Positions 4,743 through 52,740 are shown, numbered from the stretch's first letter. The stretch: 52,740 bases of DNA from Armatimonadota bacterium (GCA_037446215.1 JBBIJB010000010.1:1-52740), one strand, 5' to 3'. The notes: generated by a model not told the origin, from the letters alone. Numbers and translations: made by a program.

Positions 4743-6773
4743 CTAGACCACCTCTCCTCTCTTCTCGCCCCTGGTCAGGTACTGGACCACTGCCACAGCC
4801 ACCACCGCGGCGATCGCCAGGGTGTCCTGGAGGGCGGACGGGTAGATCAACACGATCCCGGCCGCCGCGAGCACCGCGCGCTCCAGCAGCGATGCCCTCC
4901 GCAGGAACCAGCCCGTCATGGTCGCCGCGAGCGCGGTGAGCCCGAAGACGGCCGTCACTGAGACATACGCTACCGTCTGCCAAGGCGCCTGCAGCAGCAG
5001 CCCCATCCCCTGCTTGTGGAGGGTGAACATGAAGGGCACGACGAACGCGGGCAGCGTGTACTTCCACGCCATCATCATCGTCTTGAAGGGCCTTCCGCCC
5101 GTGAGGGCCGCGGCCGCCAACGGTGCCAGCCCGACCGGAGGCGAGACCTCCGAGAGGATCGCGTAGTAGAAGATGAACATGTGCGCCGCCAGCTCCGAGA
5201 CGCCCAGCTTGGTCAGCGCAGGCGCCACGATCACCGCGGCTATGATGTAGGTCGCTGTGATGGGAAGCGCGAGCCCGAGCACCCAGAGCGCGATCGCCGC
5301 GTAGATCAGCGTCAGCAGCAGGTGGCCGCCCGCGTAGGCGATGATCACGTCCGAGATCTTGAGCCCCAGGCCCGTCAGGTTCACGACGCCGACCACGATG
5401 CCCGCGGCCGCGCAGGTGACCGCTACGTTGAGCATCTGGCGGCTGCCGTTGTCCAGCGACGCGACCAACCCCGAGGGGTTGACCACCGCGCCCCCGAGGC
5501 GCACGCCGCCCCCCTCTGCCCGGAGCCCCCGGTCGGTCGGGCCGGCGCGGCGAAGCGTGACCAGCGCCGTGTCCCGCCGCAGCAGGCTGGTGGCAGCCGC
5601 TATCACTATCGCCCAGAAGACCGCCTTGATCGCAGTGAAGCCGATGATCATGAAGACCGGTATCAGGACAAGCGACGCCAGCAGGAACCAGTAGCGCAGG
5701 AGCAGCATCCTGACGTCCTGAGTGACGAACTCGACCTTCGCCAGCCCCATCCTGCGGGCGTCGAACTCGATCATCAGCATTATCGAGTAGTAGTAGAGGA
5801 CCGTGGGGATGGTCGCCATGATCACCACGGTCAGGTAGGAGATCTTGAGCATCTCGGCGATGATGAACGCCGCCGCGCCGAGTATCGGCGGCGAGATGAC
5901 CGCGCCTATGCCGCCGGCCGACAGCAGCCCGCCCGCCGACTCCCTATCGTAGCCCGCGCGCCGCAGCAGCGGGTAGGTGATCGCTCCCACCGCCACCGTG
6001 GTGGCGACGCCGCTGCCCGACGGCCCCCCCAACAGGAAGGAGGCGATCGTCGTCGCCTGTCCCGGTGCCGTCCTCCTGCCCTTGGTCACCGACAGGGCGA
6101 GGTCCACGAAGAACCTGCCCGCGCCCGAGGCCTCCAGCGTGGCGCCGTAGATCGTGAAGAGGATGATGAAGGTGGCCGACACCTCGAGCGGCACGCCGAA
6201 GATCCCCTCCAGCGTGATGTAGAGCTGCCCGACCACCCGCACCAGGTCGTATCCCCGGTGCGTCCAGGGCTCGGGCAGGTAGGGGCCCACGAAGGCGTAG
6301 GCGAGGAACGCGACGACGAGCAGCATCAGGGCTAGACCCACGGTCCTGCGCGTGGCCTCGATCACCAGCAGGATCGTGGCGATCCCGAAGACCATGTCCA
6401 GCGTAGTCGGGATGTACGACCTGTAGACGAACGCCTCGAAGTCCGCGAAGACGTAGCCGAGCGAGACCAGGCTCGCCGCGACGAGGGCTATGTCGAAGAC
6501 CGTCGGAGCCGTCCGCCGCAGCGTCCGGCGCGTCCCCGGGTAGAGCAGGAACGCCAGCACCAGCACGAACATCAGGTGGCGCGTCAGGTGTATGTGGCGT
6601 ATGAACGTGGCGTTGGCGGCGTAGAGGTGGTAGAGCGACATCGCGACCGCGAGTATCGTGACGGCCGTGCCCCACCCGCCTGCCAGCCTGCGGGTCTTGC
6701 CCTCGTACTCCTCGACGATCTCCTTGAGCTCTTCCTCGGACTTGACCGGCGCCGCCTCGTCGCGCTGTGCCAT
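4743..6773 (-). CDS. TRAP transporter fused permease (TAXI-type 4TM/12TM fusion)
   Basis: 676-aa polytopic membrane protein. Size, hydrophobic periodicity and its position after TAXI receptor and DUF1850 genes are characteristic of TAXI-TRAP fused permeases. Confidence 0.9.
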   Translation of the reverse strand: MAQRDEAAPVKSEEELKEIVEEYEGKTRRLAGGWGTAVTILAVAMSLYHLYAANATFIRHIHLTRHLMFVLVLAFLLYPGTRRTLRRTAPTVFDIALVAASLVSLGYVFADFEAFVYRSYIPTTLDMVFGIATILLVIEATRRTVGLALMLLVVAFLAYAFVGPYLPEPWTHRGYDLVRVVGQLYITLEGIFGVPLEVSATFIILFTIYGATLEASGAGRFFVDLALSVTKGRRTAPGQATTIASFLLGGPSGSGVATTVAVGAITYPLLRRAGYDRESAGGLLSAGGIGAVISPPILGAAAFIIAEMLKISYLTVVIMATIPTVLYYYSIMLMIEFDARRMGLAKVEFVTQDVRMLLLRYWFLLASLVLIPVFMIIGFTAIKAVFWAIVIAAATSLLRRDTALVTLRRAGPTDRGLRAEGGGVRLGGAVVNPSGLVASLDNGSRQMLNVAVTCAAAGIVVGVVNLTGLGLKISDVIIAYAGGHLLLTLIYAAIALWVLGLALPITATYIIAAVIVAPALTKLGVSELAAHMFIFYYAILSEVSPPVGLAPLAAAALTGGRPFKTMMMAWKYTLPAFVVPFMFTLHKQGMGLLLQAPWQTVAYVSVTAVFGLTALAATMTGWFLRRASLLERAVLAAAGIVLIYPSALQDTLAIAAVVAVAVVQYLTRGEKRGEVV

Positions 6774-8856: not shown

Positions 8857-11723
8857 CCCTACCGCTTCGCGTGATGATCCTCGATGACGGGCCGGCAGAC
8901 GCCGAGCTGATGCTCGATGAGCTCAGGCAGGGCGGGTTTGTCCCTGACTGGACACGCGTCGAGACAGAGGCGGAGTTCGTGGACGCCCTCGACCCGAAGA
9001 TCGACGTCATCCTGGCCGACTACAACCTCCCCGGCTTCAGCGGGCTTCGGGCGCTGCGGCTCCTGAACGAGCGCGGCCTCGACGTGCCCTTCATCCTGGT
9101 CTCCGGCACCATCGGCGAGGAAGTAGCGGTCCGCGCCATGCAGGAGGGCGCCTCGGACTACCTGATCAAGGACCGCCTGGGCCGGCTGGGACAGGCCGTC
9201 TCCATGGCGCTGGAGAGGCGCAAGACGAGGCGCGCGCTCACTGAGGCGGAAGGCCGCTACAAGAGCCTCTTCGAGGGCGTCCCCATCGGGCTCTATCGCT
9301 CCACGCCCGAGGGCAGGTTCCTGGACGTGAACGACGCGCTGGTCGAGCTGCTGGGCTATCCGGACCGCGCCTCCCTGCTGGAGGTGAGCATTCGGGAATT
9401 CTACGAGCATCCCGAAGACCGGGACACGCTTCTCTCGAGCGCCGTGGAGGCAGGCGTCGTCCGGGACGCCGAGATCCGGCTGCTGAGGAGAGACGGCGAG
9501 GAGATCTGGGCCTCGCTCAATACCAGGGCGGTGAAGGGCGCCTCGGGAGAGGTCCTCTACTACGAGGGGAGCGTCGAGGATATCACCGCCCGGAAGCGCG
9601 CCTCGGAGGCACTGGCTGAGCGCGAGCGCTTCCTCTCGACGCTCAACGAGATCACCCGGGCCTCCCTGGAGTCGTGGGATGTCGATTCGATGTTGCAGAC
9701 GCTGGCCGAGCGGTTGATGGAGCTATTTGGGGCGGACGGCTGCTTCATCAACGCCTGGGACGAGGAGCGCCGGGTGCCGATGCCGGGGGCGGCAGCAGGC
9801 ACGGTGAGTGGGGCATACCCCGGGACGGTGCTTGCTGAGCCCGGAGAGCCGACGATCACAGGCGCAGTCCTGTCGGCGGGCCGAGCCCTTCCGGTGGAGG
9901 ACTACCAGAACAGCCCTCTCGTCAGCCGGCGCATCGCCGCGTCCTACCCGTGCAGGTCGGTCCTGGGCCTGCCCCTCATCTCAGGGCACTACAAGCTGGG
10001 GGTGGCGACTATCACCTTCGATGCGCCCCACCGGTTCACCGAGGAGGAGATGGCGCGCGGCGAGCAGGCCGCCCGCCAGATATCGCTGGCGATAGCAAAG
10101 GCCCGGCTCCTGGACGAGTCGGAGCGAAGGGCCGAGGAGCTGGCGGCCGCGGTCAAGGTGACCGGCGCGGTGCTGCGCACGCGCGACCTGGACGAGCGCA
10201 TAGAGGTCATTCTTCGCGAGATGATGTCGTTCGCCAAGACCGAGTATGGGGCCGCCTTCCTACTGGACGGGGACGGGGTCAGGCTGTGCGCGGCGCGCGG
10301 CTTCGCAGGATCCCTTCATGTCGAACTGCAGGGCCTCGGCAGGGACCGGGGAGAGTGGCTCCGGACCCCGCGCACGCTGAGCGGTAGCGCGGGCCAGCCG
10401 GATCTTCCCGAGTTCGCCCGACGCGAGGGCATCAGGTCATGGATCACGCTACCCCTGAGCCAGCCCCTCGCCCCCGGCCCATCAGAGGCGGAGTTCGCGG
10501 CCTCCTTCGTCCTGGCGAGCCGCGACGCGGACGTCGTCACCGACGAGCGTCTGGCGGCCCTCAGGCGGATGACCCCACCGCTCCGGCTTGCAGTGGAGAA
10601 CGCCCGGGCCTACCGCCGGGCGCAGGAGCGCATGGTGAGGCTGCGCTCCCTCCACGAGATCGACAGGGCCATCACCTCCAGTCTCGACCTCCGTACGACG
10701 CTCACGGTGCTCCTTGCTGAGGCCTGCTCGCAGCTCGACGTGGATGCCGCGGCGGTGCGCCTGTTCAACGCGCACACGCGCTCCCTGGAGTTCGCCGCCG
10801 CCAGGGGTTTACCGGAGAGCGAGTTGAGGCGCGCGGCCCGCGCCTCACGTCACAGCCACGCCTCACAGGCCGCCACGGAGAGGCGTGTAGTGCACGTACG
10901 GCATCTTGAGAAGGAGCAAGCAGACCCCCTCCTGGCGTACCTCTCGGCCGAGGGGTTCGCAGACCTCCTGGCGGTTCCTCTCATCGCCAAGGGGCGCGTG
11001 ACGGGCGTGCTGGAGCTCATGCACCGGAAGCCGCTGGACCGGGACCCCGACTGGAAGGGGTTCCAGGAGAGCCTGGCGGCCCAGGCGGCCATCGCGCTGG
11101 ACAGCGCGGCCATGTTCGAGGAGCTGCAGCGCTCCAGGGCCGAGGTGATCCTCGCCTACGATTCGACGCTAGAGGGGTGGGCCCGTGCCCTCGACCTGCG
11201 GAACGACGAGACCGAGGGCCGCACGGAGAGGATCTCCGAGGTCACCCTGCGGCTGGCCCAGGAGCTTGGTGTCCGCGAGGTAGACCTGGAGCAGATCCGC
11301 CGGGGGGCGATGCTTCACGACATAGGCGAGATCGCGGTCCCGGAAGCCGTCCTGCTCAAGCCCGGGCCCCTGACCGAGGAGGAGTGGGTCGAGGTGCGGC
11401 GCCACCCCACGGTGGCCTTCGAGATGCTCTCGGCGATTCCGTACCTGCGTCCCGCTCTCGACATACCCTACTGCCACCACGAGAGGTGGGACGGATCCGG
11501 CTATCCGCGCGGCCTGTCGGGCGAGCAGATTCCCCTGGCGGCCAGGATCTTCGCGGTCGTGGATGTCTGGGAAGCGCTCACCTCGAGCCGCCCCTACCGT
11601 GAGGCCTGGCCCGAGGCGAAGGCGCTGGCGTACATCCGCGAGAAGTCGGGCAGCCAGTTCGACCCGCGGGTCGTCGAAGCGTTCCTGCGGGTGATGACCG
11701 CTACCCCTCGACCGCCTGCCTGA
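8853..11723 (+). CDS. Response-regulator receiver / PAS / GAF / GAF / HD-GYP multidomain protein (putative c-di-GMP phosphodiesterase)
   Basis: GTG with GGGAGGA RBS. REC domain (VMILDDGPADAE...DVILADYNLPGFSG...SDYLIKD). PAS domain (VPIGLYRSTPEGRFLDVNDALVELLGY...YYEGSVEDITARK). Two GAF-like regions. HD-GYP domain (MLHDIGEIAVP...HHERWDGSGYPRGL). Confidence 0.9.
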   Translation: MTLPLRVMILDDGPADAELMLDELRQGGFVPDWTRVETEAEFVDALDPKIDVILADYNLPGFSGLRALRLLNERGLDVPFILVSGTIGEEVAVRAMQEGASDYLIKDRLGRLGQAVSMALERRKTRRALTEAEGRYKSLFEGVPIGLYRSTPEGRFLDVNDALVELLGYPDRASLLEVSIREFYEHPEDRDTLLSSAVEAGVVRDAEIRLLRRDGEEIWASLNTRAVKGASGEVLYYEGSVEDITARKRASEALAERERFLSTLNEITRASLESWDVDSMLQTLAERLMELFGADGCFINAWDEERRVPMPGAAAGTVSGAYPGTVLAEPGEPTITGAVLSAGRALPVEDYQNSPLVSRRIAASYPCRSVLGLPLISGHYKLGVATITFDAPHRFTEEEMARGEQAARQISLAIAKARLLDESERRAEELAAAVKVTGAVLRTRDLDERIEVILREMMSFAKTEYGAAFLLDGDGVRLCAARGFAGSLHVELQGLGRDRGEWLRTPRTLSGSAGQPDLPEFARREGIRSWITLPLSQPLAPGPSEAEFAASFVLASRDADVVTDERLAALRRMTPPLRLAVENARAYRRAQERMVRLRSLHEIDRAITSSLDLRTTLTVLLAEACSQLDVDAAAVRLFNAHTRSLEFAAARGLPESELRRAARASRHSHASQAATERRVVHVRHLEKEQADPLLAYLSAEGFADLLAVPLIAKGRVTGVLELMHRKPLDRDPDWKGFQESLAAQAAIALDSAAMFEELQRSRAEVILAYDSTLEGWARALDLRNDETEGRTERISEVTLRLAQELGVREVDLEQIRRGAMLHDIGEIAVPEAVLLKPGPLTEEEWVEVRRHPTVAFEMLSAIPYLRPALDIPYCHHERWDGSGYPRGLSGEQIPLAARIFAVVDVWEALTSSRPYREAWPEAKALAYIREKSGSQFDPRVVEAFLRVMTATPRPPA

Positions 11724-43659: not shown

Positions 43660-44466
43660 CTACTGGTGGAGGATCTTGGAGAGAAACACCTTGGTCCTCT
43701 CCTCCCTCGGGTTGGTGAAGAAGTGCTCTGGGGACCCCTCCTCGACGATGATGCCCTGGTCCATGAAGGCCATGCGGTCCGCCACCTCGCGCGCGAAGCC
43801 CATCTCGTGGGTGACGACTATCATCGTCATCCCCCCCTCGGCCAGGTCGCGCATGACGTCGCGCACCTCCTGGATCATCTCCGGGTCGAGCGCGGAGGTC
43901 GGCTCGTCGAAGAGCATTATCTTGGGCTGCATAGCCAGGGCCCGCGCGATCGCCACGCGCTGCTGCTGGCCGCCGGAGAGATGCGAGGGATAGGCCGCGG
44001 CCTTCTCGGGGATGCCCACCCGCTCCAGGAGGCCCCGCGCGATCTGCTCGGCGCGCTCGCGTGTCCACTTCCTGACCTGGATCGGCGCCAGCATCACGTT
44101 GTCCAATGCGGTGAGGTGGGGGAAGAGGTTGAACGACTGGAAGACCATCCCGACCTCGCTGCGCACCGCGTCCGCGTTCGCGAAGTCGTCCGTGAGCTCT
44201 ATCCCGTCGACCACGATGCGGCCCGAGCTGTGGGCCTCGAGCCTGTTGATGCACCGGATCATCGTAGACTTCCCCGATCCCGATGGGCCGGCCACGACCA
44301 CGACCTCTCCGGCGCGGACCGACAGATTCACTCCCCGCAGCACGTGTTGGCGGCCGAACCACTTGTTGACGTCCTCGAGGAGTATGACCGGCGATGCCTC
44401 GGGTTTGGCTGGCTGTTCCATCGCTTCCCCTTGAGAGGCCGTCCCATCGCATTTCCCGGCCGTCAT
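43660..44466 (-). CDS. Polar amino-acid-type ABC transporter ATP-binding protein (GlnQ/HisP-like), no cognate permease nearby
   Basis: Walker [11 protein letters not shown]-loop, signature [15 protein letters not shown], Walker [14 protein letters not shown]-loop VVTHEM. Start is ATG 44466 (candidate leaderless) or ATG 44421. Confidence 0.9.
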
Positions 44467-44471
44467 ACGAC

Positions 44472-44500
44472 AGTGTAAGTGCCATCCTGTGCGATAACAA
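44472..44500 (-). promoter_or_regulatory. Candidate promoter TTGTTA-N17-TACACT, placing +1 at or near the ATG at 44466
   Basis: The minus strand reads ccTTGTTAtcgcacaggatggcactTACACTgtcgtATG, with an exact 17-nt spacer. The A of the ATG is the 6th nt after the -10. Confidence 0.35.
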
Positions 44501-44536
44501 GGAGTCCCGCAGGCCTGGTCGAATCCGAAGCTCCGT

Positions 44537-45289
44537 ATGCCGCAACTGCCGATGCTGGCACTGGTCGCGCTGGCAGCCGTCGTCTACTCCTCGATCGGCT
44601 TCGGGGGGGCCTCGGCGTACCTCGCCATCCTCAGCCTCTACGGGGTACCGCACGCCGAGCTGTCAACGAGCGCGCTGGTGCTCAACATCCTCGTGGCGGG
44701 CGTCGCAGCGTTCAACTTCGCGCGCGCCGGCCATCTTTCGGGAAGGGTCACCTGGCCGTTCGTGATCGCCTCCGTCCCCGCGGCCTTCCTGGGAGGGCGG
44801 CTGCCGGTGGGCGCTTCGGTCTACGGCCTGTTGCTCGCGGTCTCGCTCTTCCTGGCCGCGCTGCGGCTGTGGTGGTCCCCGGAGGCATCAGCGGCCGGGG
44901 AGGAGGGCAACAGGCCGGTCGGCTGGTCGCTGGCCCTGGTGGCGGGCGCCGCCATCGGCGTCCTGTCGGGGATAGTCGGCGTGGGCGGCGGGATCTTCCT
45001 GAGCCCCCTGATCATCCTGGCCGGGTGGGCGGGCCCCAGGCGGACCGCGGCCACCGCGGCGGTGTTCATCGTGGTCAACTCGATCGCCGGGCTCGTGGGC
45101 CGCGCGGCGCGCGGCGCGCTCGTCGTCGGCGACCTCGGCCTCCTGATCGCCGTAGCCTTCGCCGGGGGCGTCGTTGGGTCGAGGCTCGGAGCACGGAGGC
45201 TCCTGCCGGTGCACCTGCGGCGGGTGCTCGCGCTGATCCTGCTCACGGTGGCCTACCGCAACTTCAGGCTCTGGCTCGGGGCGCTCTAG
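44537..45289 (+). CDS. TauE/SafE-family sulfite/anion exporter
   Basis: 250-aa polytopic protein with the internally duplicated pattern [13 protein letters not shown]... / [17 protein letters not shown] typical of TauE/SafE (DUF81). Confidence 0.85.
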
Positions 45290-45308
45290 CGCGCGGCCAG
45301 GTAGTCTG

Positions 45309-45331
45309 ACATTCCCCGCCTCGGGGAATGT
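45309..45331 (+). terminator. Stem-loop: perfect 10-bp stem ACATTCCCCG / CGGGGAATGT, 3-nt loop, followed by TCATT
   Basis: Lies 19 nt after the TauE stop. Base pairing verified position by position (45309-45318 with 45322-45331). The U-tract is weak. Confidence 0.5.
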
Positions 45332-45361
45332 TCATTGGAGAATACCCTCAGGTGGATGCCC

Positions 45362-46849
45362 ATGAAGCTTGGAGAGATCCTTGTGGAACTGGGAGTCGTG
45401 TCCTCCGACCGGATTGAGGAGGCGCTCCGGCTACAGCGCGAGGCAGGGGGCAGGCTCGGGGAGATCCTCACCAGCCAAGGGTGGGTGCTCGAGGACGACG
45501 TCTGCTGGGCGCTCAGCAACCAGCTCGGACATCCCTACGTCTTCCTGACACCCGAGATCATAGATGTGACGGCGGTCAGGGCGGTTCCCGAGGAGCTGCT
45601 GCGCGCCCACCTCGTGGTTCCGATCCTCATGTCGGAGGGCGAGCTGACCCTCGGAATGGCCGACCCCACCGACGAAGTCGCCGTGGAGACGATAGGCGGC
45701 TACACCGGCATGCAGGTCAGGCGGGCGCTAGCGCGGGGCTCCAACATATCAGCGATCCTCGACCACGCCTTCTCGCAGGCGCCGCCCGAGCCCGAGATCG
45801 CAGACGACCGGGAGCCCGGAGGGCGGCAGCTGGTGAGGTTCCACCTTGTCCAGGCGGCGCAGCAGGGAGCGACCGCGGTCTACCTCGATCCGGGAAGCAA
45901 CGGCCGGGCTGCAGTCTCCTACCGGCTGCGGGGGACGGTCGTGGGGCGGCCCAGCGCGGCCCGTGAGGTCTACCTGGACGCGGTCCACTACATCCGCCAG
46001 AAGGCCAGGCTGGACGGCGAGACGGGGAGCGGGCAGTTCGTGTCCAACGTGGCAGGCCCTCCCATGGCCGTGGGCATCTCGCTGGTGGCCACGTATTTCG
46101 GGACCGCCGTGGCCATGGCGCTGCATCCGGAGAGGCAGCAACCCCCGCCGCCCGAGGCGCTCGGGCTGGCGTTGCCGGCCGGGCTCGAGGAGGCCAAACG
46201 CGGGCTGTACATCGTGGCCTGCTCGGACTCCCACACCAGGCAGACGACCTTGCACAGCCTGCTTCGGCTTAGACCCCAGGGCCGCCTCGTCACCGTCGAA
46301 GGGGCGGTCTACTCCGTCTACCCCCACGCGGCGCAGATCCCGGTCGGTCTGTTCGAGCCCGCCGCCTACGCGGTGGCGATACGAGGCGCGGCGGCGATCG
46401 GCCCGGAGACCCTGCTCATAGACGATCTCCCGGACACGGAGGCCGCGGCGGCGGCACTGGCCGGCGCGAGGAGCGCAGTGGTGCTGGCCGGATGCGCCTG
46501 CGGGAGCGTGCGTGCCATGCTGGCGCGCTACGAGCGCGTGCTCTCCGCCACGGAGGTGACCGGCCTGGTACGGGGGGTCCTGGCGGTGCGGCCGGTGAGG
46601 GCGCTCTGCCCGGCGTGTCGCGGCGAGAGGGGCCCCTCGGGCAGAAGGGGCTGCGACTCCTGCCTCTTCACCGGGTTCGGAGAGGCACACCTGCTCAGCG
46701 AGTACCTGGAGGCCCCGCACTCACTCGGCACTCTTCCCGCCGACGCCTATCCTGTGACGATGCACGCTCAGGCCGAGGCGCTTGTGGCTTCCGGCAAGGT
46801 TTCGCGCGACGAGGTTCTGCAGGCCCTGGAGGGCTACCCGTGGACATAA
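45362..46849 (+). CDS. PilB/GspE-family protein with an intact tandem MshEN (c-di-GMP-binding) N-terminus and a degenerate ATPase core
   Basis: ATG 6 nt after AGGTGG (the track start is TTG 45335). MKLGEILVELGVVSSDRIEEALRLQ-REAGG-RLGEILTSQGWVLEDDVCWALSNQ, then a T2SSE_N-like region. The C-terminal half is colinear with the neighbouring PilT but lacks Walker A, Asp box, Walker B and His box consensus. CPAC...CDSC is retained. Confidence 0.8.
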   Translation: MKLGEILVELGVVSSDRIEEALRLQREAGGRLGEILTSQGWVLEDDVCWALSNQLGHPYVFLTPEIIDVTAVRAVPEELLRAHLVVPILMSEGELTLGMADPTDEVAVETIGGYTGMQVRRALARGSNISAILDHAFSQAPPEPEIADDREPGGRQLVRFHLVQAAQQGATAVYLDPGSNGRAAVSYRLRGTVVGRPSAAREVYLDAVHYIRQKARLDGETGSGQFVSNVAGPPMAVGISLVATYFGTAVAMALHPERQQPPPPEALGLALPAGLEEAKRGLYIVACSDSHTRQTTLHSLLRLRPQGRLVTVEGAVYSVYPHAAQIPVGLFEPAAYAVAIRGAAAIGPETLLIDDLPDTEAAAAALAGARSAVVLAGCACGSVRAMLARYERVLSATEVTGLVRGVLAVRPVRALCPACRGERGPSGRRGCDSCLFTGFGEAHLLSEYLEAPHSLGTLPADAYPVTMHAQAEALVASGKVSRDEVLQALEGYPWT

Positions 46850-47937
46850 CAGATCTCCTCGTGATGACCAAGGAGCGAGGGGCCTCCGACCTGCACATCA
46901 CCTCCGGCGCGCCCCCCACCCTCCGAATACACGGTCGCCTGGTGAGACTGGATCACGCGACCTACTCGCGAGAACAGGTCCACACGCTGCTCTACGACAT
47001 CCTTACCGACGAGCAGAAGGCCCGCTTCGAGGAGGCCCACGACCTCGACTTCTCGCTCGAGCTGCTCGGGGTCGGGCGGTTCAGGGTGAACGCGTTCATG
47101 CAGCGCCTGGGCGAGGGGATGGTGATGCGGCTGATCCCCTCCAGGATCCAGACGCTCGACGATCTCGCGATGCCGCCCGTCCTCAAGGACCTCTCCCTGA
47201 AGAGCAAAGGGCTGGTCCTGGTCACCGGCCCGACCGGGTCGGGCAAGTCCACCACGCTGGCCGCGATGGTGGACCATATGAACGAGCACCGCGAGGAGCA
47301 CGTGATAACGATCGAGGACCCGATCGAGTTCGTCCACTCTCCCAGAAGGTGCAACATCAACCAGCGGGAGGTCGGCGCGCACACCCGCTCGTTCGCCGCG
47401 GCGCTCCGGGGCGCGCTGCGCGAGGACCCTGATGTAGTGCTCGTCGGCGAGATGCGCGACCTCGAGACGATCGCCCTTGCCATCACCGCGGCGGAGACCG
47501 GGCACCTCGTGCTCGCAACCCTGCACACCAACAGCGCGGCGCAGACGATAAGCCGCGTGGTGGACGTATTCCCTCCGCACCAGCAGGAGCAGATAAGGGT
47601 GCAGCTCTCCGAGGCTCTCCTGGGGGTCGTAGCGCAGACGCTCATCCCGCGGCTGGACGGAAAGGGGCGCGTCGCCGCCGTCGAGGTGATGGTGGCGACA
47701 CCCGCAATTCGCAACATGGTCCGTGAGAACAAGGTCCACCAGATCCCCTCTGCCATACAGACAGGCGCCAGGGAGGGGATGCAGAGTCTCGACCAGCACC
47801 TGAAGACCCTGGTGAAGCTCGGCAAGGTCTCCCGCGACGAGGCGGTCAGGCGTGCCGTCGAGAAGGAGGCGTTCGGCCAGGAGCGCGCCCTATCCGCCCT
47901 GCGCGGCGAGGCCGGCGGATTCCTGGCGAGGGACTAG
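46840..47937 (+). CDS. pilT: Type IV pilus retraction ATPase PilT
   Basis: The GTG at 46840 gives MDITDLLVMTKERGASDLHITSGAPP, the canonical PilT N-terminus. It overlaps the upstream gene by 10 nt. Walker A GPTGSGKST, EDPIEF, VLVGEMRD, TGHLVLATLHTN and the PilT signature AIRNMVRE. Confidence 0.92.
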   Translation: MDITDLLVMTKERGASDLHITSGAPPTLRIHGRLVRLDHATYSREQVHTLLYDILTDEQKARFEEAHDLDFSLELLGVGRFRVNAFMQRLGEGMVMRLIPSRIQTLDDLAMPPVLKDLSLKSKGLVLVTGPTGSGKSTTLAAMVDHMNEHREEHVITIEDPIEFVHSPRRCNINQREVGAHTRSFAAALRGALREDPDVVLVGEMRDLETIALAITAAETGHLVLATLHTNSAAQTISRVVDVFPPHQQEQIRVQLSEALLGVVAQTLIPRLDGKGRVAAVEVMVATPAIRNMVRENKVHQIPSAIQTGAREGMQSLDQHLKTLVKLGKVSRDEAVRRAVEKEAFGQERALSALRGEAGGFLARD

Positions 47938-47955
47938 CGGGGAGCGCGGCCCGGT

Positions 47956-49023
47956 ATGCGCATAGACGACCTGCTGGAGCACATGGAGGCGCGCGACGCC
48001 TCCGACCTCTACCTGAAGTCCGGCATCCCTCCGATGCTGAGGATCTCGGGAGAGCTTGTGGCGCTCGAAGGGCAACCGCTCGACGACGCTGCCGTAGGGC
48101 GGCTCGCCGACCAGATGATGACCGACAGGCACCGGGCCGACTTCGAGGCGCGCAGCCGCGCCGACATCGCGTACAGCTCGCCTCGGCTCGGCCGCTTCAG
48201 GGCCAACGCCTACATCCAGCGGGGGTCGCCCGCGGTCGTGATCCGGAGGGTGAGGACGCTCATCCCGTCGTTCGAGGAGCTGCGTCTTCCGCCAGTTGTG
48301 AGCTCGCTGGCGTTGCTCCCCCGCGGCCTCGTCCTCGTGGTCGGCCAGACCGGGGCAGGGAAGTCGACGACCCTCGCCGCGATGATCTCCTACCGCAGCC
48401 GCGAGCGAACAGGGCACATCGTCACGATCGAGGATCCGATCGAGTTCGTCTACACGGACGAGCGGAGCATCGTCAGCCAGAGGGAGATCGGCACCGATTC
48501 GGAGTCCTACAGCCTGGCCCTGCGGGACGCGCTGCGACAGGCACCCGACGTGATCATGATCGGCGAGATCCGGGACGAGGAGAGCGCGACCGCCGCGGTT
48601 CACTTCGCCGAGACGGGCCACCTGGTTCTCAGCACCGTCCACGCGACGAACGCCAGCCAGACCCTGGAGCGGATGCTCCACTTCTTCCCGGCCTCCGCCC
48701 ATGACGGAGTCGCGCTGCAGCTCTCGCTCAACCTGAGCGCAATCGTCTCTCAGCGCCTGATCCCTCTCAAGGACGGCCGGGGCCGGGCCGTGGCTGCCGA
48801 GGTGATGCTTGCGACCCCGCGGGTCAGGGAGCTGCTCCGAAAGCAGGACCTGGCGGGCATCCGCGGCGTCATGAGCTCGCCGGCCGGGATCCAAGAAGGG
48901 ATGCAGACCTTTGACCACGCTCTCTTCCGGCTAATCAAGGAGGGCCTGATCGACGTCGACACCGGGCTCGGCGCCGCCGACAGCCCCAGCGACCTTCGGA
49001 TGCGGTTGAAGGGGCTCGTCTAG
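47956..49023 (+). CDS. PilT/PilU-family ATPase paralogue (PilU-like; lacks the AIRNLIRE signature)
   Basis: MRIDDLLEHMEARDASDLYLKSG, Walker A GQTGAGKST, EDPIEF, IMIGEIRD, TGHLVLSTVHATN. The AIRN position reads RVRELLRK. Confidence 0.88.
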   Translation: MRIDDLLEHMEARDASDLYLKSGIPPMLRISGELVALEGQPLDDAAVGRLADQMMTDRHRADFEARSRADIAYSSPRLGRFRANAYIQRGSPAVVIRRVRTLIPSFEELRLPPVVSSLALLPRGLVLVVGQTGAGKSTTLAAMISYRSRERTGHIVTIEDPIEFVYTDERSIVSQREIGTDSESYSLALRDALRQAPDVIMIGEIRDEESATAAVHFAETGHLVLSTVHATNASQTLERMLHFFPASAHDGVALQLSLNLSAIVSQRLIPLKDGRGRAVAAEVMLATPRVRELLRKQDLAGIRGVMSSPAGIQEGMQTFDHALFRLIKEGLIDVDTGLGAADSPSDLRMRLKGLV

Positions 49024-49041
49024 ACGGATCCCGGGATCCGT
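49024..49041. terminator. Perfect 18-bp palindrome ACGGATCCC|GGGATCCGT between convergent stops (bidirectional hairpin candidate)
   Basis: It fills the gap between the pilU-like stop (49021-49023) and the cyclase stop (49041-49043). As RNA it gives a 7-bp stem with a CCGG loop. No U-tract. Confidence 0.4.
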
Positions 49042-50552
49042 CAGGCGGTGGCGGCGACCACCCTGTCGCGCCCCTGCGACTTAGCCCTGTAGAGCGCCGA
49101 GTCGGCCGCCCTCAGCAGCGTCTCGGCGGTGCTGCCGTGATCGGGGAAGGCGGCAACCCCCAGCGAGATGCTGATGCCTCCAAGGGACTGCCCCCTATAG
49201 GGGACATTCAGGCCCTTGGCGGCCATCCGCATCTCCTCTGCCCTCTCCGTCGTCGCCTCCAGCGAGGCCTCGGGGAGGATCACCGCGAACTCCTCGCCGC
49301 CGTAGCGGCAGACGATGTCTTCCCTCCTGAACCTCGTACCCAGCAGGTCTCCGAGGGCTCGCAGCAGCGCGTCGCCCGCCAGGTGGCCGAACGTGTCGTT
49401 GAACTGCTTGAAGTGGTCGAGGTCCAGCATGATGATTCCCACCTGCGCGTGCCGCCTGTCTGCCCTGTGGAGCTCCCTGTCCAGGCTCTCCTCCATGTAG
49501 CGCCGGTTGTAGAGCCCCGTGAGCGGATCGCGTATCGACTGGTGGCGCAGGCTCTCGCGCAGCTTCAGGTTGGCCAGGCTGAGCGCTATCTGCTCGGCCA
49601 CGGAGGCGGCCAGGTTGTGCTCGGCGGCCTGATCGGTGCCGCCCGCCCGCTCAGCCACGGACCTCGGAGGCGAGTGGAGGGTGAGGACCCCGAGTGCCTC
49701 GCCCTGCGCCATCATCGGCACGCACACGTAGCGCCGCGCCGACTGCGGGTCCACGTGCCTGCACAGCGCGCCGCCCTGCTCCTCGCTCACCGAGTGGGTC
49801 CTGCCGCGCCGAAGCGCCCAGCAGTCCTCAGGCGCGAAGATCCGGTCGTCTCCCCCGTGCTCGCCCCAGACGGCCACCGCCTCGAGCAGCTTCTTGGATG
49901 GGTTGAGCAGGCTGACCACACCAGCCCTGCGGCGGAACAACCGGGGCATGCGCTCGGCCAGTACCGCGAACGCCTCCTCTCCCGACTGGCAGCTCTGGAG
50001 CAGATCGACCATCTCGCTGAGGGACTCCATCTCCACCGTGCGCCCCTCGAGCTCCTCGACCAGCGCGGTCAGCCTCTCGTTGGCTATCCTGGACGACTCC
50101 TCGGCCCGCCGCCTGTCCGTTATGTCCTCGATCACGCCCTCGTACCAGGAGATGCGGCCCTGGGCGTCCCGCACCGCCCTGGAGGTGTCACGCGCCCAGA
50201 CGATCTCGCCGTCCCGTTTCTTCAGGCGGAACTCGAAGCCCCGCACCGCGTCACCCGTCGCCACCAGCGCCTGCCACCTGGCCCGATCTGCCGGGTCCTC
50301 GTAGAGGCCGTCAACGCTGCCCACGCTCAGGAGGGAGTCGAGGCTCTCGAAGCCCAGCAGGCCCGCCAGGGCCGCGTTGGCGTCCAGCAGGCGCCCGGAC
50401 GGCGTCGATACGTAGACGCCGATGGGGATCCTGTCGAAGAGGCGGCGGAGGTTGGAGGCCTCTCCGGGCGACCAGGTTATCGCCTCCGGGGCTCCCGCTG
50501 TCCCACCGGACGCCTGGGTTGCCCTTGGCTTCTTCTTACCCATCGCGCACAC
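49041..50552 (-). CDS. PAS-GAF-GGDEF diguanylate cyclase
   Basis: PAS domain ([27 protein letters not shown]...[18 protein letters not shown]), a GAF-like middle region, and GGDEF with an intact active site ([12 protein letters not shown]...[11 protein letters not shown]...[11 protein letters not shown]). Start is GTG 50552 or ATG 50543. Confidence 0.9.
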
Positions 50553-50577
50553 CGCTCCCCACCCCCGCCCGCTTGAA

Positions 50578-52740
<2,163 letters not shown>

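Follow-up and report, generated by a model that had tools for sequence, protein, structure and literature searches.

A 52,740-nucleotide stretch of DNA from an Armatimonadota bacterium (GCA_037446215.1 JBBIJB010000010.1:1-52740), referred to below as the window, contains a three-gene module in which a PilB/GspE paralog with degenerate catalytic motifs, here called psiPilB, is directly followed by intact genes for retraction ATPases of the PilT and PilU types. psiPilB carries the tandem motifs of an MshEN head, the receptor domain for cyclic di-GMP (c-di-GMP), and judging from motifs and gene order we consider it fairly probable that the protein acts as a non-catalytic partner of the PilT/PilU retraction motors and senses a signal for them. 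What is new here is a PilB-derived, non-catalytic MshEN protein tied to retraction motors, which points to undescribed signal control of retraction. A sequence-only reading of the same DNA had proposed a sensor-type pseudo-ATPase tied to PilT and PilU; this proposal is supported by the conserved tight linkage of the genes, by a ratio of nonsynonymous to synonymous substitution rates (dN/dS) of 0.13 and by a match to the c-di-GMP motif model NF053729. The window is contig C10 of a metagenome-assembled genome (G000; 2.16 Mb, 149 contigs, 91% complete), and its gene order was assigned by codon-position G+C together with Pfam. The module comprises the following features:

45362-46849, plus strand: psiPilB, catalytically degenerate PilB/GspE paralog of 495 amino acids (Pfam, alignments, NCBIfam, AlphaFold2/Foldseek, dN/dS)
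45365-45523, plus strand: tandem 24-residue MshEN c-di-GMP-binding motifs, residues 2-25 and 31-54 (motif match, NF053729)
46220-46243, plus strand: degenerate Walker A, residues 287-294, CSDSHTRQ in place of GPTGSGK[ST] (alignment)
46418-46435, plus strand: degenerate Walker B, IDDLPD in place of VGEIRD (alignment)
46607-46663, plus strand: retained zinc-binding tetracysteine of the GspE/PilB type, CxxC...CxxC (alignment)
46840-47937, plus strand: pilT, intact retraction ATPase (TIGR01420, 489.5 bits against a cut-off of 319.1)
47956-49023, plus strand: pilU-like accessory retraction ATPase, intact (TIGR01420, 410.4 bits)

psiPilB consists of an MshEN domain, an N2D domain and a dead ATPase core that includes the zinc tetracysteine. 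Pfam assigned 58 bits to MshEN and 26.5 bits to T2SSE, the latter barely over its cut-off of 24.9, and the protein failed the curated PilB/GspE models TIGR02538 (54.5 vs a cut-off of 675.65) and TIGR02533 (44.7 vs 630.25). Its motifs were read from alignments to the solved PilF, PilB and GspE and to the true PilB of the same genome. Apart from the lost Walker A, the Asp box reads EGAVY where EDPVE is canonical, the Walker B core DDLPD instead of GEIRD, and the His box GCACG instead of TLHTN. Walker A (GxxGxGK[ST]) is missing from all 20 psiPilB orthologs, and the replacement motifs (GC.D...R[ST]T and [VI]DD) recur across them. All four cysteines of the zinc motif (CPAC...CDSC) are invariant in the family alignment. 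Where active ATPases have the Walker A Lys, the Asp-box Glu and the Walker B Glu, the family has the invariant residues R293, E313 and D355, and we therefore describe psiPilB as predicted catalytically inactive, not as free of nucleotide binding. The AlphaFold2 model reached a mean predicted local distance difference test (pLDDT) score of 68.9, falling below 50 after residue 410, so that the C-terminal 85 residues are poorly modelled; its top Foldseek matches were GspE, PilF and PilB (E 1e-17 to 1e-13). At this moderate model confidence, psiPilB is predicted to keep the N2D and C-terminal domain fold of PilB/GspE. A single-protein scan of the genome contigs returned distant PilB-like matches only and was uninformative.

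Nei-Gojobori comparison with an 83%-identical relative (L149), in which TauE, psiPilB and pilT follow one another as in the window and psiPilB and pilT likewise overlap by 10 nt, gave the dN/dS of 0.13 for the whole of psiPilB, with 0.11 for MshEN, 0.08 for N2D, 0.26 for the dead core and 0.07 for the C-terminus. The corresponding values for comparison genes were 0.15 (TauE) and 0.08 (PilT N-terminus). psiPilB is under purifying selection.

The tandem 24-residue MshEN motif has been defined previously, including a relaxed form (PMC5013675). In psiPilB, KLGEILVELGVVSSDRIEEALRLQ (motif I) and RLGEILTSQGWVLEDDVCWALSNQ (motif II) are separated by the 5-residue spacer REAGG, and the N-terminus scored 63.9 bits against NF053729 (cut-off 38). 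Motif I has K instead of R in position 1 and I instead of L in position 17, and the deviating residues of motif II, numbered within the motif, are T7, W11 and V17; every deviation except the Thr of motif II is tolerated by the relaxed motif. The tandem motifs are conserved across psiPilB orthologs. Thus psiPilB has the motif characteristics of an MshEN receptor domain, and by these it is predicted to bind c-di-GMP.

The sequence confirmed both junctions of the module as they had been described earlier, a 10-nt overlap of the PilB-like gene with pilT and the start of pilU 18 nt further on. The TAA stop of psiPilB (46847-46849) lies downstream of the pilT GTG at 46840 (GTGGACATAA), which is preceded at a distance of 6 nt by GGAGGG, and an 18-nt gap separates the pilT stop (47935-47937) from the pilU ATG at 47956; pilU ends with a stop codon at 49021-49023. 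The PilT motifs GPTGSGKS, EDPIE, GEMRD, TLHT and AIRNMVRE are all present, and the best solved relative is Pseudomonas aeruginosa PilT (3jvu). In the PilU-like protein the catalytic motifs are intact and PRVRELLR replaces AIRNLIRE; its best match in the Protein Data Bank is PilU 9n32 with 343 bits, vs 264 for PilT 3jvu. Being of the PilT family, without AIRNLIRE, encoded 3' of pilT and nearest to known PilU, the product of the third gene classifies by sequence as a PilU. PilU-type paralogs are reported to be most effective when coupled to the primary PilT (PMC11656802). P. aeruginosa and Vibrio cholerae show the same pilT-then-pilU order, with both genes intact and PilU lacking AIRNLIRE; unlike here, no PilB-derived gene precedes and overlaps pilT in these species.

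Conservation of the module was followed in 40 related genomes, from which 19 ortholog loci were fetched (20 genome loci with the window). psiPilB orthologs in this set were 34-49% identical, with E values of 1e-67 to 1e-123, cleanly apart from true PilB paralogs at about 1e-30. pilT lies directly 3' of psiPilB in 19/19 genome loci, at 68-79% identity to the window pilT, and pilU is the next gene in 14/19. The psiPilB stop and the pilT start overlap by 1, 10, 22 or 28 nt in 14/19 loci and are separated by gaps of 2-27 nt in the rest; the C-terminal PWT of psiPilB is conserved and dual-coded with the pilT start. psiPilB and PilU orthologs co-occur, about 15 of the 40 relatives being without both and keeping only the pilB-adjacent pilT. 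A close ortholog was found in 29/94 genomes of the phylum, which as defined in the genome database used holds 94 species of one order only; NCBI labels the public near relatives Armatimonadota. Gene-neighbourhood analysis had been named in the sequence-only reading as the test of a four-gene arrangement that included a diguanylate cyclase. The three-gene core stood this test, and the cyclase, adjacent in 2/20 genome loci and 0/80 metagenome loci, did not.

The metagenome loci, 80 in number, came from a scan seeded by two MshEN peptide patterns. Counting the loci with enough downstream sequence, pilT was found within 300 nt 3' as follows:

Receiver-bearing dead PilB: 11/11
Receiver-less dead PilB: 24/26
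MshEN-only genes (about 141 amino acids): 14/15
Walker-A-positive PilB: 0/10

In total, pilT follows 49/52 Walker-A-less relatives vs 0/10 true PilBs. An unbroken psiPilB reading frame is present in 20 genomes and in dozens of metagenome contigs. Moreover, a profile search of 1.84 billion representatives gave 155 family and top-match proteins, eight queries included, and 53 of those longer than 440 amino acids lacked Walker A. Where named, the Walker-A-less relatives were annotated PilB or GspE. Pipelines that label dead PilBs as PilB/GspE ATPases would miscount extension motors in uncultured lineages.

Within the same genomes and metagenomes several variants of the arrangement were noted. In one genus (G014:C1 and G022; L051, L052), dead PilB-pilT and another pair, pilT-pilU, occupy distinct loci, which shows that the module can be divided. 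In G008 (L048:3-1199 / L067:8031-9773), a full-length MshEN-T2SSE gene (580 amino acids) stands divergently 5' of the dead PilB. The MshEN-only genes (L097, L101, L102, L104, L107, L108, L112, L115, L117, L118, L124, L126, L132, L133, L141, L143 and L147) encode proteins with well-kept tandem motifs and lie mostly 42-83 nt 5' of pilT (238 and 443 nt in two); their contigs are low in G+C and belong to Candidatus Atribacteria where named, and the proteins are all annotated hypothetical. A soil-metagenome lineage of dead PilBs (L105, L110, L111, L123, L128, L144 and L146; about 480 amino acids) is situated 12-15 nt 5' of pilT, has GPPRSGGS as Walker A and is without the zinc cysteines. The leading Arg is gone from both of its MshEN motifs (LTS.. 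and LIG..), and c-di-GMP binding may be lost in this lineage.

In 15/19 psiPilB orthologs an N-terminal receiver (REC) domain with the usual acidic pocket precedes the MshEN head. In the same-genus relative L066 (GCA_030018905.1, 6640-14191) the genes encode, in order, a dCache-HAMP-histidine kinase-REC protein, REC-HD-GYP, REC-MshEN-dead ATPase, PilT and PilU, with TauE and a catalase nearby. The five-gene operon recurs in L072, L078, L056, L059 and L060, and its neighbouring genes overlap by 4 nt. A hybrid histidine kinase is found 5' of most receiver-type loci and REC-HD-GYP in eight; in the receiver-less loci, neither kinase nor REC-HD-GYP was found. Since most orthologs are REC-bearing and stand behind a hybrid kinase, the ancestral input was presumably to a large extent a phosphorelay. 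The REC-HD-GYP gene directly upstream in many relatives gives indirect support to an involvement of c-di-GMP. The window psiPilB falls together with the other receiver-less form (G008, 49% identity), the branches being long, and the PilT tree is star-like and without resolution. The window protein is a stripped-down, faster-evolving variant. Elsewhere in the window, at 11121-11678, a tblastn match (44% identity, 188 residues) to the HD-GYP portion of REC-HD-GYP from the relatives indicates the presence of a gene for an HD-GYP-type phosphodiesterase.

The mechanism that we propose starts from the stop/start overlap, through which psiPilB would be made together with PilT, PilU being next. psiPilB would bind c-di-GMP through its MshEN head and would most likely also bind PilT/PilU, or else the place where these dock on the cell's one type IVa machine. 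Binding would make retraction signal-dependent. The only signal in this genome would be c-di-GMP, to which most relatives would add phosphorylation of the receiver by the adjacent hybrid histidine kinase, with the REC-HD-GYP phosphodiesterase tuning c-di-GMP. If this is true, a conserved and selected dead PilB coupled to PilT/PilU would be a concrete candidate for signal-gated retraction. More tentatively, and against the odds as we judge them at present, dead PilBs and their MshEN-only relatives might be widespread, cross-phylum regulatory subunits that dock on or co-assemble with PilT rings and lend them a sensor in trans, so that retraction would be directly gated by c-di-GMP and, in the receiver forms, additionally by a dedicated phosphorelay.

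Several points weigh against a signal-sensing partner of the retraction motors. The mechanism is built on gene order and motifs, from which we infer both the physical contact and the binding of c-di-GMP. The Lys in place of Arg in motif I and the Thr at a hydrophobic position of motif II could lower the affinity for c-di-GMP, and psiPilB may, given the invariant R293, E313 and D355, retain some nucleotide binding. Furthermore, the true PilB of this genome is also followed by pilT, so that pilT adjacency is not unique to the dead paralog, and the metagenome loci are a biased sample, drawn as they were by two MshEN peptide patterns. Finally, in a genome that is 91% complete a second pilus machine could be missed.

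The retention of PilB-type N1, N2 and C-terminal domains and of the zinc site would also suit a competitive plug, with the dead PilB occupying the PilB docking site on PilM/PilC or poisoning PilB hexamers, so that retraction would win by default and direct contact with PilT would not be needed. The N1 domain of PilB is believed to contact the stator complex, and there are reports of interactions between the ATPases (PMC11656802). However, the linkage of psiPilB is with pilT rather than with pilB or pilC, and the MshEN-only proteins, which are without an ATPase-like part, show the same linkage in 14/15 loci. This implies that the MshEN head and PilT form the functional pair and favours an adaptor or gate over a plug at the PilB site, which we regard as improbable.

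The signal-sensing partner could receive its c-di-GMP from a dedicated source, the diguanylate cyclase encoded next to the module. The features on this side are:

49024-49041, no strand assigned: perfect 18-bp palindrome ACGGATCCCGGGATCCGT between the convergent pilU and cyclase genes (sequence)
49041-50552, minus strand: PAS-GAF-GGDEF diguanylate cyclase gene (Pfam; TIGR00254, 193 bits)

As had been described from the sequence, an intact GGEEF cyclase converges on the pilU-like stop across the palindrome; the two genes are 17 nt apart, the palindrome taking in the T of TCA (49041-49043), the reverse complement of the cyclase TGA stop. The active site GGEEF comprises residues 418-422, with an RxxD I-site (RRED) five residues upstream. 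A local circuit, in which this cyclase would supply c-di-GMP to the MshEN pseudo-ATPase acting on PilT/PilU, draws on its intact active site and I-site and on its position, and the same convergent layout occurs in one other genus (G020/L058). The c-di-GMP phosphodiesterase within the operon in relatives makes local control plausible in principle. Nevertheless, the cyclase adjoins the module in 2/20 genome loci (G000 and G020/L058) and in 0/80 metagenome loci, G020 being the only genome besides G000 with a cyclase homolog convergent on pilU. In five same-genus genomes, homologs of about 51% identity stand in unrelated contexts with no pilus genes nearby, and two of the five, G001 and G002, have the cyclase homolog and are missing the psiPilB module. 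The genome holds 8 GGDEF genes, and the cyclase, being on the opposite strand, is not co-transcribed with the module. The cyclase is a neighbour and not a conserved member of the module, and the dedicated circuit that the sequence-only reading had inferred from its position is, on these counts, unlikely. Synteny was tried as an explanation of the position and rejected, as TauE/KatG homologs are not beside the cyclase homologs in same-genus genomes. The palindrome may serve as a bidirectional hairpin terminator; its RNA fold has -24.8 kcal/mol and there is no U-tract. As a significant structure it was dropped, with a z of only -1.5 against shuffles.

Whether the partners of psiPilB work in a pilus at all bears on a further alternative, in which PilT/PilU and the dead PilB would work in another machine or process, for instance in secretion or in DNA handling. 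When the whole genome was searched for PilC, secretin, N-methyl pilins, PilM and prepilin peptidase, none of them matched on the contig of the window, in line with the earlier statement that pilus structural genes are missing nearby. Locating pilus loci genome-wide, a check proposed at the same time, revealed a single complete type IVa set on other contigs:

C120: true pilB (with its own MshEN), pilT, pilC and pilins
C103: prepilin peptidase (PilD) and secretin
C69: pilM
C96: a fourth PilT

More pilin genes are spread over several contigs. With one PilC, one secretin, one PilM and one prepilin peptidase found in the genome, the simplest reading is that the module works for this one machine. 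The non-pilus use could appeal to the absence of pilus structural genes from the window, to the two further PilT paralogs of the genome, one of them beside pilB-pilC, and to an alternative apparatus discussed for a Geobacter mshE-pilT3 pair (PMC5065972). Set against this are the single type IVa set, the AIRNxxRE motif of the window PilT and the fact that P. aeruginosa PilT and PilU are the best solved relatives. The suggestion of a non-pilus role for PilT-like motors is thus without support, and we consider it very unlikely. That psiPilB is a decaying duplicate without function, as the loss of every catalytic motif and the long branch of the window lineage might suggest, is hardly credible and was ruled out by its dN/dS of 0.13 and by the conservation of reading frame, replacement motifs and start/stop overlap.

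Two observations on the pilus contigs were made in passing. The pilB-adjacent PilT at C120:2322-3356 (minus strand) has GPTGHGKS as Walker A and an insertion of about 35 residues before AIRNLVRE. At C103:957-5475, a GGDEF-domain gene (957-1418) stands alongside the prepilin peptidase (2632-2937) and secretin (5005-5475) genes, and c-di-GMP may be connected with the pilus machine here, too.

In sequence and fold, psiPilB is matched best by the MshEN extension ATPases, represented by V. cholerae MshE (5HTL), Thermus thermophilus PilF and the PilB of Myxococcus xanthus and Geobacter, with which it shares the tandem c-di-GMP motif, N2D, the ATPase-type fold and the zinc tetracysteine. These proteins are active extension motors, whereas psiPilB is without Walker A, Asp box, Walker B and His box; unlike them, it is tied to pilT/pilU and not to pilC. 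c-di-GMP acting on MshE sets the balance of extension and retraction (PMC7096442, PMC5013675), and MshEN fusions to REC, HD-GYP and other domains have been listed without a function (PMC5013675). Non-motor signalling proteins, either c-di-GMP receptors or receiver domains, that bind pilus ATPases and tune them are represented by FimX-PilZ-PilB in Xanthomonas and Pseudomonas and by the receiver protein DrdR of Xanthomonas campestris (PMC8389850, PMC5595344, PMC13507683), and DrdR-type receiver proteins bind both PilB and PilT (PMC13507683). They have unrelated folds (EAL/GGDEF, PilZ, REC-REC) and act mainly on PilB; in contrast to psiPilB, they include no degenerate motor paralog and no protein whose translation is coupled to that of pilT.

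A likeness in gene order is found in Geobacter sulfurreducens, where the pilB-like gene GSU0435 ('mshE') is located directly 5' of the pilT paralog pilT3 (GSU0436), an order kept in three Geobacter species; GSU0435 and PilT3 are co-expressed, both at a high level on Fe(III) oxide, and PilT3 complements a P. aeruginosa pilT mutant (PMC5065972). GSU0435 was treated as a putative ATPase, and no PilU, receiver, kinase or HD-GYP was reported with the pair (PMC5065972). In the literature searched, we found no functional description of a catalytically dead PilB regulator. Where second messengers are known to control type IV pili, they do so at the extension motor, by way of the MshEN head of MshE/PilB or of FimX-PilZ-PilB, and the control of retraction is poorly understood.

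The window has a G+C content of about 69%, and in frames supported by G+C at the third codon position (GC3) Pfam identified TauE, ABC ATPase, amidohydrolase and GalT genes among its other genes. The flanks of the module, which had been named as a TauE exporter and katG, were borne out by Pfam:

44537-45289, plus strand: TauE/SafE-family exporter gene (Pfam PF01925, 103.8 bits; GC3 0.93)
45312-45327, plus strand: GC hairpin, terminator-like, between TauE and the PilB-like gene (consensus scan)
50578-52632, minus strand: katG, KatG catalase-peroxidase, downstream flank (Pfam peroxidase, 232.6 bits in two stretches)

TauE is syntenic, being directly 5' of psiPilB in L149 and at most 10 kb away in L066; the exporter is the upstream flank and probably not a member of the module. 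The promoter scan gave no sigma-70-like promoter, and terminator-like matches were not above the shuffled expectation. No Rfam match to a c-di-GMP riboswitch or another RNA family was obtained in 44000-51000 at E up to 1. The psiPilB ATG at 45362 was placed 5 nt past AGGTGGA. The frame is open from a TTG at 45335 (LENTLRWMPM-KLG...), where L149 has an ATG and the nine extra residues are conserved, so the true start may be at 45335, giving 504 instead of 495 amino acids. The hairpin at 45312-45327 overlaps a possible Shine-Dalgarno sequence for this alternative start and is a weak match, its count not exceeding that in shuffled sequence.

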